Virus record (IMG/VR): IMGVR_UViG_3300017700_000625
Location: 1-52,539 of that record
Length of the DNA stretch: 52,539 bases
Direction: 5' to 3' (one strand)
From: a virus
Taxonomy: Duplodnaviria; Caudoviricetes
Numbering within the stretch: the first letter of the stretch is position 1; the number at the start of each line of letters is the position of its first letter. Shown here piece after piece: positions 1 through 25,770 of this stretch. The translations under genes were made by a program, and so were the position numbers. The notes below the pieces were generated by a model. The model was not told the DNA's origin, made no database searches, and was given only the letters and a program-made list of their open reading frames with translations.

Positions 1-123
1 AACCACCTGCGAGCCTTCCACGCGCGCGGGCGTGTGGGCGACGCCCTGGCGCAGTTCGCCAGACTGCGGCGCAGGGGCCTCGCCTGGCGCGGATGAGGTG
101 TTGGGGTTGCCCTCATGCTTGCG
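1..123 (+). repeat. Terminal direct repeat, copy 1 (assembly circularisation overlap)
   Basis: aaccacctgc...catgcttgcg is identical to 52417-52539. Confidence 0.97.
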
Positions 124-273
124 CCCGGTGCGCTGCGGCGGGATGGACAGAATATCAATAAGCTGGTTTTCGCCCTCAGCTGCGGCGAGCTCCACGCCCG
201 CCACCACTTTGGCCAGCACATAGCTACGCCCCAGCGGAACGCGAATGACCGATTTGACTCGAGACTTAGCCAT
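1..273 (-). CDS. HK97 gp10-like neck/tail-completion protein, 5' part (continues at 52416..52267; 140 aa total; absent from ORF track)
   Basis: Hand translation MAKSRVKSVIR...SSAPGEAPAPQSGELRQG...; SAPGE-x-P and ELG...PRP motifs; position among neck genes. Confidence 0.85.
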   Translation of the reverse strand, partial: MAKSRVKSVIRVPLGRSYVLAKVVAGVELAAAEGENQLIDILSIPPQRTGRKHEGNPNTSSAPGEAPAPQSGELRQGVAHTPARVEGSQVV

Positions 274-610
274 CCACCACCTCGAAAACCCAATGGCTTT
301 CCAGCCCATCCTGGCGCGACTTGCCGAGGGTGTAGGTGGCGCCATCAAGCACGATGGCGTTTCCTTCCTGCGGGGCCGATGCAAGGCCCGTGGATAGAAT
401 GATTATTTCGGTGGTGAAGATGGTCCCGCCGCCCTCACCCTGCGCCTTGCGGATGCTCTTACGCGCCCTGCACGCGACGGCCGCCGGGTTTGTCGGGACG
501 CTGAAACCGCTGCTGTTGATCGTGGTGGTTCCGGCGGCCGTCAGTAGCGCATCGCCAAAAGTGAAGTTCACCCCCGCCAGAAGCGCCGCCTTGATGTTTG
601 CCAGCCCCAC
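266..610 (-). CDS. Putative head-closure/head-tail joining protein
   Basis: 114 aa, beta-rich; lies between the DUF4054 adaptor and the gp10-like gene. Confidence 0.6.
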   Translation of the reverse strand: MGLANIKAALLAGVNFTFGDALLTAAGTTTINSSGFSVPTNPAAVACRARKSIRKAQGEGGGTIFTTEIIILSTGLASAPQEGNAIVLDGATYTLGKSRQDGLESHWVFEVVDG

Positions 611-620
611 AAGCTGCCCC

Positions 621-1004
621 CTAGATTACATAGACGGCGGGGAAGCTGCGCCGGCGCAGGTCGAGGTAGGTTTTTCCGTACTGCGTCGACGCATACGGGG
701 AAATCTCTGAGGCGCTGCCGGATCCCGAACCGCTGCCGCGGCGCAGTTCAAGGTCACCGGATTTGATGTGGCTGAAGTCACCGGCGCCCGCCAGTTGCGC
801 CGCCGTGGAAGTGCCGAGGCCCTGCATCGTGAGGGTGTGCGCCACCCAATACTGCGCGGCCGGCTTATAGTCGTTTTCAATCCATGACTCCGAAACGGCT
901 GACCCGGCTTCCGCGATTACAGCGTCAATCGTGACATCAGCCACTGCTGCAAACTCAGGAAACCGGGCCTTGATTTCGGCCGAAGTGGGAAGCGTATAAG
1001 CCAA
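621..1004 (-). CDS. Head-tail adaptor, DUF4054 family
   Basis: ARFPEF N-terminus, AHxL, STQYGKTYLDLRR C-terminus. Confidence 0.85.
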   Translation of the reverse strand: MAYTLPTSAEIKARFPEFAAVADVTIDAVIAEAGSAVSESWIENDYKPAAQYWVAHTLTMQGLGTSTAAQLAGAGDFSHIKSGDLELRRGSGSGSGSASEISPYASTQYGKTYLDLRRRSFPAVYVI

Positions 1005-1007
1005 TCC

Positions 1008-1400
1008 CTAGACGCCCTTCTCAAAGGCTTTTTTGGCAGCGCCGTGGGCGTTCCACGCCTTGCCGAGTTCGCCTTTAGCCACGCTGATCGCCTTTTTCTT
1101 TTCGGGCGTGTCATCGCCGTTGGCTTCGGCGGCGGCCAAGTTGTCCTTGGCCATCTTCACCACGTTTTCCGCATCGGTCAGAGCGGCCTGCAAGGCCCCG
1201 TTTTCCTCATCGGTGGTGTCGACCTTGTTGCCCTTGCCAACCGAAATGTCGCGGCGCGCGATCAGGCCGGCGTGGAATGTGTCGGATGCGTCGAACCCCT
1301 CCACCTCGCGCGTTTCGCCGGCCGGGATTTTGATGAGCGTATCTTTGCCATCACGAACGGCTGCTGCGCGGTTCTTAAGATTGTTCCGAATTTTAACCAT
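1008..1400 (-). CDS. Hypothetical virion-associated protein
   Basis: 130 aa, SD ggag; directly downstream of the capsid gene. Confidence 0.6.
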   Translation of the reverse strand: MVKIRNNLKNRAAAVRDGKDTLIKIPAGETREVEGFDASDTFHAGLIARRDISVGKGNKVDTTDEENGALQAALTDAENVVKMAKDNLAAAEANGDDTPEKKKAISVAKGELGKAWNAHGAAKKAFEKGV

Positions 1401-1448
1401 CGTTTTAGTCTCCGTTTTGGGCGTCCTGCCCGACCCTTTGGAAATGGT

Positions 1449-1477
1449 CAGGCCCCAGCCTTTTGGGCCGGGGCCTG
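1449..1477 (-). terminator. Hairpin after major capsid gene (terminator/stabiliser)
   Basis: caggcccc...ggggcctg inverted repeat; weak U-tract. Confidence 0.5.
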
Positions 1478-1483
1478 GTCGAA

Positions 1484-2428
1484 CTAGAAGGCGTCTCGGT
1501 AGCGAACGGCGCCCGGGAGGCGGATATCAACGCCGCCGAGGCGCATCACGCCCGGGACGTTGTAATAGAGCCCTTCCTGCTGAACCTCGAGGAAACGATG
1601 ACTCATCGGAATGTGGAGTTTCACCACGTCGGGCGCGCGGCGATAGGCGACCATGCGCTGAGTGGTGGACACGCCGACAGTTTCGAGGCCGCGCACGGCG
1701 CGCACCGTGATCTTTTTCCCGGTCTGCATGGTGTAGAGGTTCGACTTGAGGAAATAGTCAAGAATCGTCATCGCGCTGTCGGCGCTCATCGGAGTCGTCG
1801 CGATGTAGGCAAGGCGATCAGGGGACAGCAACAGCGTGTCGGCCATTTCGATCTGCAGCGAGTCCGACCAGACGTCAGTGATGATTTCGTTCAGGTCTTT
1901 CAGCACTTCCAGAGACGTTTTCGCGGTCCAGAGGCGCGAGGTGGCGCCGGCGTTGTTGGCCACGTTCGCCGGCGTGATTCCGCTGTTATTGATGAAGGGC
2001 TGAAAACCCTTGTCAGCGTCGCCCGTGGACAGCGCGACATAGTCCACGAATTCCTCAGAGATACGGCGCGCGGAGTCGGCGCGGTCGGCAGTCAGGGCGA
2101 TTCCCATCATGCGGGCCAGGCCGATTTCTTCCCATCCGAAGTCATAGCCGATGCCGGCGGTGTGAACGCCGGTGCTGGTTTCGCTGCGGCTGGTGGCGAC
2201 GTTCGGAATGTCTTTGGCGTTGCCGTTGATCCATTTGGCAAGGCCGCGCGCGTCGGTCGATGAGTAGATGACCGACTGCGCAAACTCAGGCGCCGAATAG
2301 TCCACCGGGATCAATTCCGGGTACTGCACGGTTGGGTAGCGGGTGGCATATACGCCCGCCTCGATGTGCGCCGCCTGGCTGCGGATAAAGGCCATGTTGG
2401 CCTGCGCGTCGTGAATGTCGATATTCAT
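1484..2428 (-). CDS. Major capsid protein, DUF2184 family
   Basis: 314 aa; YPELIPV, GYDFGWEEI, RLGGVDIRLPGAVRYRD; follows protease and decoration genes. Confidence 0.92.
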   Translation of the reverse strand: MNIDIHDAQANMAFIRSQAAHIEAGVYATRYPTVQYPELIPVDYSAPEFAQSVIYSSTDARGLAKWINGNAKDIPNVATSRSETSTGVHTAGIGYDFGWEEIGLARMMGIALTADRADSARRISEEFVDYVALSTGDADKGFQPFINNSGITPANVANNAGATSRLWTAKTSLEVLKDLNEIITDVWSDSLQIEMADTLLLSPDRLAYIATTPMSADSAMTILDYFLKSNLYTMQTGKKITVRAVRGLETVGVSTTQRMVAYRRAPDVVKLHIPMSHRFLEVQQEGLYYNVPGVMRLGGVDIRLPGAVRYRDAF

Positions 2429-2499
2429 GGGCTTCCGTCCTTTTTCGGGGCCTTAGAGCGCAGGCCGTTTGGCCGTCCTAAGTCACCGGATTGATGGGG

Positions 2500-2958
2500 C
2501 TAGAGCAAGCGCAGCAGCGCCAGGGCGCCGGAAAGCGCCGTGGTGTCGAACACGCCGTTAAGCGCGGTGATGTTCGCACCCGACGTTTTCTGAATGACGC
2601 CGGTGGCTTCCACGAAATAGGCGCGATCGCCGGCCACCACGTTTTCGCCAACGGTGACGTAAACATGGCCCTTCGTGATGATGCGCGCTTCCGACCCTTC
2701 GACAAAACGGTCAGTGTTCGCGGCCACCAGCAGCTGCGCGCTTTCCTCGCGCGCGACGATGCCGAGAACCTTGTTTTCGCCGTTCAGGTTCGGGTTGATG
2801 GCGTGCGCGTCGCCGGTGCCTTGAACGGCCACGGTGCCGAACGCGAGGCCCGCCGCTTCCTCAACCGTGCGGCTGATAAGCGTGTTCGGGATTTGCGTTC
2901 CGATCTGGCCGACGAACGCCGCAGAGTGGCGCTCACTGTAAGTGGTTTGGTTAGCCAT
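2500..2958 (-). CDS. Head decoration/cement protein
   Basis: 152 aa between protease and capsid; QTTYS, LAFG, KGHVYV motifs. Confidence 0.8.
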   Translation of the reverse strand: MANQTTYSERHSAAFVGQIGTQIPNTLISRTVEEAAGLAFGTVAVQGTGDAHAINPNLNGENKVLGIVAREESAQLLVAANTDRFVEGSEARIITKGHVYVTVGENVVAGDRAYFVEATGVIQKTSGANITALNGVFDTTALSGALALLRLL

Positions 2959-22088: not shown

Positions 22089-23009
22089 TCATTGGGCGAG
22101 CGCCACCGCGTAGCCGTGCTGTTTCAAAATCCCGCCGAACCGCTGCGCGATCTGGTCGCGCTGGAATTCTGTTTCCGCGTAGACTTCCGACCCGTTCCAA
22201 ACCGCCCCGCCAAGCCAGTTCGCTGCCGAGGCCTCGCCCTTCGCGGCGATGATCGCGCGGACCACGTCGCCGGCCTGGCCTTCGGGAATTTCCAGCGGCT
22301 TGGGCTTGGCCGTTGGCGGCGGTGGTGGTGCATCGCGTCTGGCCTCGAATTCGGCCCGCAGGGCGCCGATGAGGCGCAGGGGTTCGACCCGCTCGCCTGC
22401 GGTGCGTTCGCGAAGCACTGGCAGCACAACCGTTTCGAGGTCGAATTTATCCATGAGGCTGTCTAGCGTTCGGTCGGTGATGCCGTCCACGAACCCGTCG
22501 ACAACGCCCGGGCCAACTGCCTTCCGAATTGACGCCCTGGCAGCACTGCGCGCGGCTAGCTTGCTAGCCTCTGGCTCTGGTTCTGGCTTTGGCTCTGGCT
22601 TGCTATTGCGGTTTGGCTCTTTTTGGGATGCGTCAGGCATGCGATTGCTAGACGGGTTTTCCTTATCTTTCTGCCATCTAGCGGAGGCACCCGTTTTTGC
22701 GGCCGTTTTTCTGCGCTTGGTTTTGGCGAAAACCTCTCCGTAAACCTCCGAAAGTTTCTCGTTTTCGTACCGGCCGCGCAGCACCTTAAAGAACTCCTGC
22801 AGGATGGGTTTAACCACCCGGTCAAAATCGTCCTGGCTGACCCTCATGTGGCGCCTGACCCACGTGTCATCCGCCGGCATTGTGCCGCCCGGAGTCTCCC
22901 AACAGAGGCGCAGCAAGCGCATGTATGCGCCGTCTTCCTCGAGGTTGAGGTGCTTTGTCCCGTTATTGTATTTCGATATCCATAGGGGGAGGAATGGAAG
23001 GTCACTCAT
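22089..23009 (-). CDS. Replication initiation protein, YdaU/DUF1376 family
   Basis: LPFLPLWI..Y...TKHL..EEDGAYMRLL..CW; GA.ARW; PEPEPE linker. Confidence 0.88.
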   Translation of the reverse strand: MSDLPFLPLWISKYNNGTKHLNLEEDGAYMRLLRLCWETPGGTMPADDTWVRRHMRVSQDDFDRVVKPILQEFFKVLRGRYENEKLSEVYGEVFAKTKRRKTAAKTGASARWQKDKENPSSNRMPDASQKEPNRNSKPEPKPEPEPEASKLAARSAARASIRKAVGPGVVDGFVDGITDRTLDSLMDKFDLETVVLPVLRERTAGERVEPLRLIGALRAEFEARRDAPPPPPTAKPKPLEIPEGQAGDVVRAIIAAKGEASAANWLGGAVWNGSEVYAETEFQRDQIAQRFGGILKQHGYAVALAQ

Positions 23010-24184
23010 GCTGTTTCCCCGGTCAAAAGGTCTGGCTGAAATGATGCTGGCGACGGGCCAGGCCGCTGAACGTCAACCGCTTCGAACAGGCGGCCGCCGT
23101 CGCCATCTATTCGGGCGCGGGCCATTTCCGCATATTCCGGGTTAAGTTCGATCAGCACCGCGTTGCGGCGCATCCTGTCGGCCACCAGACCAGTTGTTCC
23201 GGCGCCCCCAAATGGGTCGAGAACTGTTCCGCCCTCCGGGCATCCGGCGAGTAGGCAGCGCTCCACCAGTTCGGGCGGGAAGGTTGCGAAATGGGCGTCA
23301 CGAAAGCCGAGGATGCCGATTTCCCAAACCTGCATAGGCGCTGGCTCATAGTTGCGGATATTCCGGCCAAGGCCTGCGGCCTGCGCCTCTTTCCAGCCGT
23401 CGTGCCGATCCTTCCACTTTTCGCCGCGGATGAGCTTTTCCCGCTGGTTGCGCAGGGCCTTGCGCTGCGAGCGGTTGCCGGTGCCGGGGTCTTTCGGGCC
23501 GCCCTGTTGGCTGTCAAATGTCGGCTGCATCAGGCGATTGATGCTCACCTGTTTGAAGGGGACGCGCACGGCGTCGATATCGTAAAAATATCGGGCTGAC
23601 TTCGTCAGCATGAAGACTTTCTCATGGGCGGTCCCGGGCCGGTCCTGCGTGCTTTCGGGCATCGGGTTGGGCTTGGCCCAGATTATTTCCGACCTGACCC
23701 ACCACCCATCTTCCTGCAGCGCAATGGCCAGGCGGTTGGGGATCATGCAAAGGTCTTTCGGCTTAAGCGTGGAGTCGCTGGCGTTTCCGCCGCCGCGCCG
23801 GCTGACACCTTCGGGAAACGGCTGGCCAGGCTGGGGCGGATTGATCGGGCCGATGGTGCTGAATGGCTTGTCGCGGAACGTGCGGTCATCGGTGCCGGCC
23901 GCTTTCGTATCGGCGGCGCTGCGGCCGTTCGGGGTGGTGGCGTAGCAATCCCCATAATTGAGCCAGAGCGTGGCGGTGGGTGTCATCACGCGGCGGATTT
24001 CGCGGAACACGTCCACCATTGTGGCGATGTGTTCGCCCAAGGTGGGTTCAAGCCCCAGCTGCCCGGCCACTCCATAGTCACGCAGGCCCCAATATGGCGG
24101 GCTGGTCACGACGCAGTCCATTGAATCGTCAGGGATGCCGCGCAGCATGTCGCGCACGTCGCCCACTAAAATCTGAACTGCCAT
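23006..24184 (-). CDS. DNA N4-C/N6-A methyltransferase (beta class)
   Basis: DCVVTSPPYWGLRDY catalytic motif before VLDPFGGAGTT SAM motif; HFATFP. Confidence 0.93.
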   Translation of the reverse strand: MAVQILVGDVRDMLRGIPDDSMDCVVTSPPYWGLRDYGVAGQLGLEPTLGEHIATMVDVFREIRRVMTPTATLWLNYGDCYATTPNGRSAADTKAAGTDDRTFRDKPFSTIGPINPPQPGQPFPEGVSRRGGGNASDSTLKPKDLCMIPNRLAIALQEDGWWVRSEIIWAKPNPMPESTQDRPGTAHEKVFMLTKSARYFYDIDAVRVPFKQVSINRLMQPTFDSQQGGPKDPGTGNRSQRKALRNQREKLIRGEKWKDRHDGWKEAQAAGLGRNIRNYEPAPMQVWEIGILGFRDAHFATFPPELVERCLLAGCPEGGTVLDPFGGAGTTGLVADRMRRNAVLIELNPEYAEMARARIDGDGGRLFEAVDVQRPGPSPASFQPDLLTGETA

Positions 24185-24408: not shown

Positions 24409-25770
24409 TCATTTCGCATCGATCGCCGCCAGCTGCTCGCCGGTGCGGCGCATAATCCAATGAATCACGTCCACGCTCATGGCGTTGCCCAGCGTCGAAT
24501 ATCTGCCGGTGAACGGGCTATCCGGCGCCAGCTGCGTGAAGCCGTCTGGAAAGCCTTGCAGGCGCTCGCATTCGGTTGGCGTGAGGCGGCGCACCGCATA
24601 GCCAACGGCGCTGGAAAGCGCCACCGCCGGCGGGACGCCTCCGTTAGCATGCGATTCCGTGAAGTTTCCGGCGCGCAGTGTGGGCGACAGGTCGGCGGTG
24701 GCGTCCTGCCCGAAGTCTTTCGAACTGAACGCTATGGGCTGGCCATATGCGACGAACGGCAGCGATGAGCCGCCGCCATCGGTGCGCAGCGCCGGCGCAA
24801 CGTCGCCCGGCTCTGGCTCTGGCATGTTGCCGCCGTCGCGGCCGCGCATGCTGAATGCTACGGGGATGAGGTGGCCAACTTTCGTATTGCTGTCAGCGCC
24901 CTTGGCGTCACGCTCTTGCAGCGCCCACGCCACGTCAGGAATCAGCGCGCTGATGTGGGCGTCAGCGCCTCCGCGTCCCGCTCTGAGGGTTCCGGCCGCT
25001 GTTGGGAAGCCGTCGACTCCAGCGCCAGCCTCAACATCGTCGGCAAAGTCTTCCCCCGGGTCTGCGCCCGGCGTAAAATCCCCGTCGCGGCCGCGGCGCT
25101 CAAATAGCACTGAGGCGGGATCCGCTCCGTTTCCAAAATCTGCGATAACGAACACTCGGTTCCGTCGTTGGGCCAAGCCGAAGTATTGAGAATTGAGAAC
25201 CCGCCAAGCCGCCCGCCCCCGTGGCCCTTGAACCATGCCTGAACTTGGGAACCCGCACGATTCCCAGCCGGTGGTTCCGGTGTCGGGATCGACTTTGCCC
25301 CAGACGGCGCCGGGCGGACATATGGGAGCGTCTGCGCCAACAAGGCCGGCCAAGAAACAGCCGAATGCGTTGTCAAAGGTGTTGAGACAGCCGGGGACGT
25401 TTTCCCAGATGAGATTGCGGAGAGGGCGAACAGGTCGGGCTGCGAGGCCATGGGCGTACTCTATCAGCTGCAGGGTGAGGTTGCCGCGCGCATCGTCCAG
25501 CGATTTGCGATTGCCTGCGACGGAAAACGCCTGACATGGCGTCCCCGCGACAAGCACGTCAACGGATGGGTAATCGTCCACGGGCGTTGCCGTGAAGTCA
25601 TCGAACAGGCGCGGGCCATTGCCAACACCGGCGCCGAAGCGGGCCGCCAATATCTTGCGCGCATAGGGCGCGATTTCCGAACAGAACAGGGTTTGCCACC
25701 CCAGCCGTTCGGCCGCGACCTCTGGCGCGCCAATGCCACTGCATAGCGTCCCCATGGTTATCTGATGCAT
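24409..25770 (-). CDS. DNA cytosine-C5 methyltransferase
   Basis: LCSGIG (I), GTPCQAFS (IV), WENVPG (VI), QRRNRVF (VIII), RRLTPTECERLQGFP (IX), LGNAM (X). Confidence 0.95.
   Translation of the reverse strand: MHQITMGTLCSGIGAPEVAAERLGWQTLFCSEIAPYARKILAARFGAGVGNGPRLFDDFTATPVDDYPSVDVLVAGTPCQAFSVAGNRKSLDDARGNLTLQLIEYAHGLAARPVRPLRNLIWENVPGCLNTFDNAFGCFLAGLVGADAPICPPGAVWGKVDPDTGTTGWESCGFPSSGMVQGPRGRAAWRVLNSQYFGLAQRRNRVFVIADFGNGADPASVLFERRGRDGDFTPGADPGEDFADDVEAGAGVDGFPTAAGTLRAGRGGADAHISALIPDVAWALQERDAKGADSNTKVGHLIPVAFSMRGRDGGNMPEPEPGDVAPALRTDGGGSSLPFVAYGQPIAFSSKDFGQDATADLSPTLRAGNFTESHANGGVPPAVALSSAVGYAVRRLTPTECERLQGFPDGFTQLAPDSPFTGRYSTLGNAMSVDVIHWIMRRTGEQLAAIDAK
24942..25451 (-). CDS. Overprinted ORF inside the C5-MTase, M.EcoHK31I beta-subunit-like
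   Basis: 169-aa alternative frame: LNTSAWPNDGTECSLSQILET..IP..CYLS....GILRRA..RGKTLP. Confidence 0.75.
   Translation of the reverse strand: MASQPDLFALSAISSGKTSPAVSTPLTTHSAVSWPALLAQTLPYVRPAPSGAKSIPTPEPPAGNRAGSQVQAWFKGHGGGRLGGFSILNTSAWPNDGTECSLSQILETERIPPQCYLSAAAATGILRRAQTRGKTLPTMLRLALESTASQQRPEPSERDAEALTPTSAR

Follow-up and report, generated by a model that had tools for sequence, protein, structure and literature searches.

The window analysed here is a complete virus record of 52,539 bp with direct terminal repeats (IMG/VR record IMGVR_UViG_3300017700_000625; Duplodnaviria, Caudoviricetes), and it encodes a C5-cytosine DNA methyltransferase within which a second open reading frame (ORF) lies wholly in the +1 frame of the same strand. 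Comparison of homologous genes showed that purifying selection acts on the nested frame, its ATG and its amino-acid sequence in the methyltransferase genes of hundreds of phages and prophages. We consider it fairly probable that the nested ORF is a real, separately initiated overprinted gene of a phage orphan C5-methyltransferase, and that its product is an accessory 'beta-like' subunit with a clamp-binding motif and an element of the small domain of the enzyme. The two reading frames and two associated sites were as follows.

24409..25770, minus strand: main C5-cytosine DNA methyltransferase ORF, 453 aa, motifs I-X complete.
24942..25451, minus strand: nested +1-frame ORF, the overprinted 'beta-like' gene, 169 aa and a stop codon.
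24544..24594, minus strand: main-frame motif IX, residues 393-409, outside the nested ORF, with its invariant residues in the alignments.
25452..25471, minus strand: 20 nt upstream of the nested ATG, with a weak Shine-Dalgarno-like GAG only.

The main ORF matched PF00145 at 5.9e-33 and phrog_116 at 2.9e-65. Motifs I, IV (PCQ), VI (ENV), VIII (QxRxR), IX and X were all found in one frame with the invariant residues aligned, so that motifs IX and X, which an earlier sequence-only reading of the window had assigned to the main ORF, were present there. The nested ATG was located 319 nt downstream of the main ATG, which places it in the +1 frame, and the nested ORF covered main residues 107-276, which comprise motifs VI to VIII and the beginning of the variable region. 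The sequence-only reading had described a same-strand, alternative-frame ORF of 169 aa across motifs VI-VIII and had quoted peptide strings from it; the ORF, the overlap and the strings were all found.

Taken in isolation, the nested ORF was only a weak candidate, because the G+C content of the region was 64%, many other spurious ORFs of 50-176 aa were found within the main gene, and 2.7% of 300 synonymous shuffles of the main gene of the window left the nested frame without a stop over a test region of 132 codons, which ran from 12 codons ahead of ENV to 42 codons past motif VIII. Parts of the nested sequence were also dictated by conserved main-frame motifs: 'GKTSP' was the +1 reading of WENVPG, and 'NTSAWPND..CSLS' was the +1 reading of motif VIII. 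All of this would agree with a chance open frame in GC-rich DNA, the conservation of which would be a by-product of main-frame amino acids, codon bias or an RNA-level constraint. The homologues gave a different result.

A set of loci chosen independently of the nested frame was collected by searching IMG/VR with an alignment of main proteins and with two main-frame motif patterns only, and 80 loci were returned; the alignment was required, since the search with the main protein as a single query found no relatives. The set analysed consisted of 84 records (83 loci and the window), of which 81 were parsed by the motif regular expressions. The main proteins of the IMG/VR loci were 33-57% identical to that of the window, and the G+C content of the loci was 40-69%. 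In 81/81 loci, the open +1 frame extended from a point 12 or more codons before ENV to one 42 or more codons past motif VIII, with open stretches of 116-269 codons, and it was likewise open in the three records missed by the regular expressions (L057, L071 and L083). The +2 frame closed within 23 codons past motif VIII in every analysed locus. The stops counted over the 81 loci, with the numbers expected from synonymous-codon shuffling, were as follows.

+1 frame, inside the region: 0 stops observed, 168 expected.
+1 frame, outside the region: 949 stops observed, 906 expected.
+2 frame, inside the region: 294 stops observed, 410 expected.

Stop-codon avoidance across homologous methyltransferase genes, which the sequence-only reading had proposed as a check, was therefore found, and the frame was not broken. 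Two further locus sets were fetched with queries containing the nested domain and were hence biased towards nested-bearing loci; with all sets pooled, the frame spanned motifs VI-VIII in 239/239 loci with locatable motifs, while 4 of 243 were without motif context. In the AT-rich genes of phages MM1 and CHPC1175, a nested frame this open occurred in 0/1000 shuffles each. In the control, Klebsiella phage Matisse, the +1 frame was closed (36 codons, equalled by 821/1000 shuffles). The depletion of stops over loci ranging in G+C from 0.40 to 0.69, with no depletion outside the region, and the open frames of the two AT-rich genes stand against a chance frame.

Conservation of the two proteins also argued against it. 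Column conservation was calculated over 46 representatives with less than 70% main-protein identity, with the following values.

Over motif VIII: nested conservation 0.86, main conservation 0.89.
A further segment of the nested C-terminal domain: nested 0.72, main 0.75.
30 residues after the main-frame LFE motif (nested residues 119-148): nested 0.74, main 0.51.

After the LFE motif, the nested protein was thus more conserved than the protein in which it is nested. Synonymous codon identity, measured among aligned identical amino acids, was 0.38 on either side of the nested ORF, 0.51-0.57 in the N-terminal two-thirds of the nested protein and 0.82 over nested residues 89-148, and it fell back to 0.34 in the nested tail. 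This constraint, which started and stopped with the nested domain, answered a second check proposed for the nested ORF, namely reduced synonymous variation. The absence of stops together with synonymous suppression exactly over the conserved domain bore out the claim that the ORF is retained by selection.

The start codon chosen was ATG in 79/81 loci and TTG in 2, and nearly all starts were located 9-18 codons before ENV. In the window, the nested ATG was 15 codons before ENV, with an in-frame stop 3 codons upstream of it; an in-frame stop within 3 codons upstream of the nested start was found in 53/81 loci, which speaks against a frameshift from the main frame as the route of entry. In 17/46 non-redundant loci, a core Shine-Dalgarno tetramer was present at -17..-5, against a background of 7.9% elsewhere in the same genes (P ~3.5e-8). 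In the window itself, this interval contained GAG only, with no GGAG, GAGG or AGGA, as the sequence-only reading had noted in calling the Shine-Dalgarno sequence weak. The conserved ATG, the upstream in-frame stop and the enrichment of Shine-Dalgarno tetramers add to the case against a chance frame, as does the homology, described below, of a nested element to an in-frame element of another enzyme; RNA structure would neither avoid stops nor keep an ATG. A chance frame is considered extremely unlikely.

A coding frame without a start of its own in the window, either as a relic of a split alpha/beta ancestor or as an isoform made by ribosomal frameshifting, would agree with the weak Shine-Dalgarno sequence of the window and with the existence of the fused and split forms described below, and proteins P0001 and P0153 read from the main into the nested frame. 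However, the upstream in-frame stops (53/81) block entry from farther upstream in the main frame, and the ATG was kept in 79/81 loci. The fused forms were rare in contigs. The constraint persisted down to about 35% main-protein identity, which shows that the nested frame is not a recent relic, and the nested 3' end, at which ribosomes would have to return to the main frame, contained no conserved sequence. Because of this unconserved end and the stops upstream of the start, programmed frameshifting was rejected, and the explanation as a whole is considered very unlikely. The nested ORF looks like a separately translated protein, and is predicted to be one from the pattern of selection.

The nested protein was folded by AlphaFold2 with a 43-row alignment. 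Residues 1-100 had a low predicted local distance difference test score (pLDDT, about 50), and the helical C-terminal part was confident, with pLDDT up to 96. Sequence patterns and structure prediction suggest a three-part anatomy, followed by a tail.

25428..25442, minus strand: clamp-binding-motif-like QPDLF, nested residues 4-8, an N-terminal pentapeptide in a low-confidence, probably disordered stretch.
25188..25427, minus strand: linker, nested residues 9-88, low-confidence and probably disordered, conservation 0.43.
25002..25187, minus strand: conserved C-terminal domain, nested residues 89-150, with helices 102-107, 119-132 and 138-150.
24942..25001, minus strand: non-conserved tail, nested residues 151-169 and stop codon, conservation 0.11, synonymous identity 0.34.

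The sequence of the linker was largely set by main-frame motifs VI-VIII, and nested residues 89-150 overlapped main motif VIII and the main-frame stretch after it. An insertion of about 17 codons (25248..25298, minus strand; nested residues 52-68, main residues about 158-174) was shared only with L004, the nearest relative (67% identity in the nested protein, 66% in the main protein); it left both frames intact and lengthened the nested linker as well as the main protein, the latter between motifs VI and VIII.

The conserved C-terminal domain carried a helical element with the pattern L-x-D/Q-I/V-L-E ... Y/F-Y/F-L-S, followed by a basic helix in most lineages, and the window had it. This pattern was found in 81/81 nested proteins and in 0/81 of their main proteins. 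Staphylococcus phage IME-SA4 encodes a monomeric-type enzyme, the main frame of which has a segment L-V-D-I-L-E ... Y-Y-L-S some 25 residues past motif VIII. The nested ORFs of CHPC1175 and MM1, whose enzymes are closely related to that of IME-SA4, matched this main-frame segment in BLASTP analysis (14/21 identities, E 5e-6; and 14/26, E 4e-6, respectively). The IME-SA4 enzyme aligned continuously to M.HhaI residues 12-215 and its segment fell at about residues 190-210, which we take to be the beginning of the small, target-recognition domain. In Matisse, the control with a closed +1 frame, the element was in the main frame. The presence of the element in nested but not in main chains, and its in-frame position in monomeric relatives, indicate that the nested ORF carries the single piece of the canonical enzyme that the main chain is without. 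The alternative that the nested helix is a diverged motif IX was rejected, because alignment of the nested profile with the IX-X profile by hhalign gave a probability of 0.09; the sequence-only reading, which had found no motif IX in the nested ORF, was correct in this.

Natural fusions gave further evidence. In about 46 of the 150 best database matches, the nested domain was N-terminal and ran in frame into target-recognition domain (TRD) modules and motifs IX-X, and such fusions are evidence, of the Rosetta-stone kind, that the nested protein and the TRD act together. In these fused 'type B' genes, the main frame ended about 100-140 codons past motif VIII, giving a split alpha/beta enzyme. 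The idea that type B is common, drawn from the protein matches, was set aside, since in contigs it was rare: L121, L131 and L140 among 239 viral loci (3/239) and 2/72 genome loci. The excess of fused proteins in the collection is best explained by gene callers, which would report the nested frame only if the main ORF is broken or cut. One natural fusion (P0005, alignment A5) was folded with a mean pLDDT of 60.3 and was confident only at the helical element and at motifs IX-X.

In a model of the methyltransferase with the nested protein, made by ESMFold2 with alignments A4 (main) and A2 (nested) and with 3 controls, the ipSAE score was 0.81 (runs 0.79, 0.83 and 0.81) and that of the best control was 0.00; in alignments of overlapping genes, however, covariation between nested residue j and main residue j+106 is built in, a point that the controls do not address. 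The ipSAE mark used was reached by 58/80 solved complexes and by 2/110 mismatched pairs, in a calibration made without user alignments. The runs agreed in at least 71% of contacts, and the partner pLDDT was at least 59. Much of the interface was on the j/j+106 diagonal (nested 68-78 with main 174-183; 87-95 with 190-200; 111-117 with 217-223), which counts against taking the model at its score. Contacts off the diagonal were found between nested residues 102-107 and main residues 200 and 400 (motif IX), including nested 106-107 with main 400, and these fit the small-domain reading. Subject to the covariation, the model gives weak support to binding of the nested protein by the methyltransferase.

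The sequence-only reading had proposed that the nested protein completes the small, target-recognition domain in trans. The element found in 81/81 nested proteins and 0/81 main proteins, the BLASTP match, the fusions and the complex model give this proposal computational support.

A protein that regulates the enzyme and does not complete it, whether by inhibition, by switching timing or specificity or by translational coupling that sets the dosage, was also considered. With all ten catalytic motifs, the main chain could be active by itself, the overlap couples the expression of both products, and the modelled interface covered a face of the catalytic domain (main residues 140-227). The homology is to a structural element of monomeric enzymes which the main chain is without, and this, like the fused forms, points to a structural part and not to an inhibitor; scans of Pfam, PHROG and NCBIfam found no regulatory domain or DNA-binding family in the nested protein. 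A regulatory role is considered decidedly unlikely.

At the N-terminus, the pentapeptide was QPDLF in the window and QLTMF, QLTLF, QLTIF, QLDLF or QLSLF among relatives. The strict pattern Q[LM]x[LMIF]F was found upstream of the ENV overlap in 113/203 distinct nested sequences, compared with a mean of 1.2 and a maximum of 5 in shuffled segments, and in the remainder of the nested proteins it was found in 0/203. The register of the motif relative to the main frame varied by lineage (QLDLF in Mycobacterium phage Dove, QLSLF in Lactococcus phage CHPC1175, QMTLF in MM1), and such differing registers in distant lineages indicate that the clamp-like motif did not arise as a side effect of one main-frame motif. 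For bacteria, the clamp-binding consensus is given as QL(S/D)LF (PMC9690074). QPDLF and QHDLF are described as the two clamp-binding motifs (CBMs) of the MuC protein of phage Mu, a leucine-to-alanine substitution in either of which abolished the MuC-clamp interaction, and QPDLF is also reported as the C-terminal consensus of the Mor/C family (PMC12867686). The likeness of QxDLF to the clamp motif, to which the sequence-only reading had drawn attention, therefore holds for the window, where the pentapeptide was identical to a MuC CBM, and for the family. We infer that the nested protein may tether the methyltransferase to the sliding clamp.

A real protein that acts on the host clamp for itself, to stall or hijack replication or to set timing, and that is only housed in the methyltransferase gene, would explain the enriched N-terminal motif. 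Phage CBM proteins with non-replicative roles exist, such as MuC, and most of the nested protein was predicted to be disordered. In addition, IME-SA4 (L244, coding sequence 1186..2466) kept a +1 ORF of 114 codons at 37% G+C, matched by 1/1000 shuffles, with a QMNIF-type start; this ORF ended at motif VIII and was without the helical element. However, the best-conserved part of the nested protein was the C-terminal element, homologous to the methyltransferase segment that is missing from the main chain, and this domain occurred in natural in-frame fusions to the TRD and motifs IX-X. The ORF was found solely inside C5-methyltransferase genes at every locus examined, and the complex model, with its covariation caveat, favours binding to the enzyme. 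An independent clamp protein is considered unlikely.

The explanation preferred is therefore an accessory subunit of three parts. An N-terminal beta-clamp-binding motif (QPDLF here, QLxLF in most relatives) would be followed by a flexible linker of about 90 residues, which may lie along the catalytic domain, and by a helical element of about 50 residues. This element would be the counterpart of the first element of the small domain, which stands in cis after motif VIII in monomeric C5-methyltransferases and would have been lost from the main chain. The nested protein would dock on the methyltransferase beside motif IX and complete the small domain in trans, while its N-terminal motif would recruit the two-chain enzyme to the host sliding clamp. 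New phage DNA could then be methylated at the fork, ahead of host restriction enzymes.

As to origin, an existing N-terminal +1 ORF, as in IME-SA4, may have been joined by an indel to the small-domain element, which would have given the split type B. A second frame change may then have restored a full-length main chain and given the common type A with a truncated beta chain, as in the window. The IME-SA4 state may be ancestral, and the N-terminal half may have a function of its own.

Several observations weigh against the preferred explanation. Among the 203 nested N-termini, 76 were without even a relaxed clamp motif, that of phage P1 among them. No clamp gene or clamp N-terminal domain was encoded in the window, and among all loci examined a clamp-like gene adjoined the methyltransferase only in L003 and its close relative L036, which amounts to no general association. 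The significant +1 ORF of IME-SA4 indicates that completing the small domain is not the sole function. The nested profile had 0 matches among PDB sequences at E up to 10, and the best match of the nested model in a Foldseek search was without meaning (E 3.6); in view of this, the small-domain mapping, and with it the putative homology of the helical element to the in-frame small-domain element, rests on the BLASTP match of 21-26 residues, the pattern and the fusion evidence. The Shine-Dalgarno sequence of the window was weak, its open frame taken alone was only a 2.7% event, and translation of the nested ORF is predicted from selection signatures only.

In the L003 locus (Pseudomonas phage TC7, 1..600), the adjoining gene was annotated as 'putative DNA polymerase III beta subunit' and was located two genes upstream of the nested-bearing methyltransferase; the same was found in L036. 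In phage Dove (L241, 1464..2582), the methyltransferase was annotated as gp107 (motifs I-VIII, 249 aa) and gp108, and a nested ORF of 159 codons, with a perfect QLDLF at its start, was found inside gp107. The methyltransferase of Dove may be a three-piece enzyme.

The distribution of the nested protein was examined with several searches. A tblastn search of the nested protein against 50,697 phage records matched 122 records, and all matches listed were beneath methyltransferase or hypothetical genes. In the three records opened (L001-L003), the matched segment was read in frame +1 of the coding sequence annotated as a methyltransferase, at the same offset as in the window, and the nested ORFs of MM1 and P1 had this +1 offset too. 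A C5-methyltransferase match to the enzyme of the window was found in 754 phage records, and the nested domain was found in 122-141 of those, which makes it a trait of a large subfamily and not of all C5-methyltransferases. In bacterial genomes (one per species), the nested profile found at least 468 stretches, which came from Alpha-, Beta- and Gammaproteobacteria, Acidobacteriota, Planctomycetota and others, and the nested arrangement was found in 72 of the 80 bacterial-genome loci kept. The best genome matches to the nested profile were in Hyphomicrobiales, which suggests that the host of the window phage may be an alphaproteobacterium.

The profile search that had been proposed for the nested ORF gave a divided result. 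The nested ORF of the window itself had no family match in Pfam, PHROG or NCBIfam, and a match of another nested member in NCBIfam at E 0.097 was regarded as chance. In a collection of 1.84 billion proteins, on the other hand, a profile of 43 nested proteins matched 4665 cluster representatives at E up to 1e-3, and the source names of the matches listed were 'hypothetical' or 'uncharacterised' only. These matches presumably come mostly from short contigs in which the main ORF was cut off. Nested proteins of a second subfamily were matched by phrog_16143 ('DNA methyltransferase') at 4e-12, which the nested ORF of the window did not reach. A search of the ESM Atlas found only unnamed, mostly viral 'hypothetical protein' clusters.

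Among known systems, the closest likeness was to M.EcoHK31I, the overprinted beta chain of which is encoded in another frame of the alpha gene and is reported to supply the motif IX that alpha lacks, and N-terminal deletions of this beta chain are reported to weaken its association with alpha (PMC2836561, PMC3404938). In both cases a small polypeptide lies wholly in an alternative frame inside a C5-methyltransferase gene, and in M.EcoHK31I the small chain is described as needed together with the large one. Unlike M.EcoHK31I, the main chain of the window keeps motifs IX and X, and the nested protein has no likeness to IX-X; it carries instead the element that follows motif VIII in the small domain and an N-terminal clamp-binding-like motif. 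By analogy, the nested gene may be regarded as a variant of the M.EcoHK31I-type overprinted subunit, one that does not supply motif IX and would work in a like manner.

The record of the pneumococcal phage MM1 (MM1-1998, DQ113772; also AJ302074) contained orf13, annotated as 'C5 methyltransferase alpha subunit', and the nested orf14, annotated as 'beta subunit', and it was the only one with such an annotation of the nested ORF. The nested ORF had therefore been noticed before, presumably by analogy with M.EcoHK31I. As in the window, orf14 was nested in the +1 frame of orf13 (L240, 1765..2190 inside 1614..2771), and it was a tblastn match to the nested family with an N-terminal QMTLF and a DILE..YFLS element; unlike that of the window, the MM1 protein ended right after the element, without the pair of basic helices that follows. 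The accessible portions of the MM1 literature state no function, clamp motif or wider conservation for orf14.

In phage P1, the dmt gene contained a nested family member of 162 codons in the +1 frame (L239, 2249..2737; NC_005856.1, about 66713-67201). This ORF was absent from the annotated features returned for the dmt region of NC_005856, and its N-terminus, QLTTN, was without the LF of the clamp motif. P1 dmt was reported as non-essential in a CRISPR interference screen, which neither supports nor refutes the two-chain explanation, and Dmt peptides were reported in P1 virion preparations; the available text of the screen and of the virion studies contains no mention of a nested product.

C5-methyltransferases are reported to tolerate splitting in the variable region, with fragment complementation in M.HhaI, M.BspRI, M.BsuRI and M.SssI, and M.AquI is described as a split C5-methyltransferase (PMC3404938). 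The type B relatives L121 and L140 were like M.AquI, with an alpha chain that had motifs I-VIII and a beta chain that had the nested part, the TRD and motifs IX-X. Unlike M.AquI and the other split enzymes, the main chain of the window was of full length, one small element would be supplied in trans, and the second chain was overprinted over motifs VI-VIII and not encoded downstream.

In eukaryotes, DNMT1 is coupled to PCNA. As in the pairs DNMT1-PCNA and MuC-clamp, a short clamp-binding peptide would here tie a DNA-acting protein to the clamp on newly replicated DNA; unlike in DNMT1 and MuC, the motif is on an overprinted accessory protein and clamp binding is predicted. To our knowledge, no bacterial or phage DNA methyltransferase uses the beta clamp. 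In the open literature searched, neither the nested family nor selection on it was described, nor was a nested ORF in P1 dmt or a clamp link for a phage or bacterial DNA methyltransferase; subscription papers were outside the scope of this search.

A wider claim may be put forward with more reserve. A very large and ancient clade of phage and prophage orphan C5-methyltransferases, which would reach phages of Proteobacteria, Firmicutes, Actinobacteria, Cyanobacteria and Verrucomicrobia and include P1 (dmt), could consist of two-chain enzymes, the second chain of which completes the recognition domain and rides the host beta clamp through QLxLF; we regard this as plausible, though somewhat short of likely. 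In prokaryotes and phages, long genes that overlap on one strand are seldom accepted, and gene callers suppress them; the nested gene was found in hundreds of phage and prophage genomes, including P1 dmt, where it has no reference annotation. If the claim is true, many phage methyltransferases regarded as 'orphan' enzymes were incomplete when studied and cloned, and supposedly silent mutations in nested-bearing methyltransferase genes are not silent. Anti-restriction methylation by phages would then be physically coupled to the replisome, a link undescribed for bacterial or phage DNA methyltransferases in the literature searched. It would be a prokaryotic counterpart of DNMT1-PCNA, and the nested gene would be among the most widespread and deeply conserved overprinted genes of bacteriophages. 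The family would also be an example of a domain element that moved from cis to an overprinted trans subunit, with the IME-SA4 type, type B and type A still extant. P1 in E. coli K-12 offers a direct test of the two-chain explanation.

A second DNA methyltransferase-like ORF of 392 aa was located at 23006..24184 (minus strand) of the window, directly downstream of the C5-methyltransferase. It had an SPPY-type motif, which suggests an N6/N4 amino-methyltransferase, so that the window phage carried two orphan methyltransferases side by side, the C5-methyltransferase and a predicted amino-methyltransferase.

In Caulobacter phage CcrKarma (L245, coding sequence 1153..2211), a strongly diverged open +1 frame of 154 codons covered motifs VI-VIII. 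It contained what may be a remnant of the element ('..LSRVLD..' and then '..LYMSPS..'), and this frame may be a distant member or chance at 65% G+C. The L057 locus (43..2478) contained a methyltransferase ORF of 811 aa with a large insertion within motif IV, between GTPC and QAFS; the insertion ended in HNC and looks intein-like. The nested +1 ORF of L057 (1280..1681) was intact despite this insertion.

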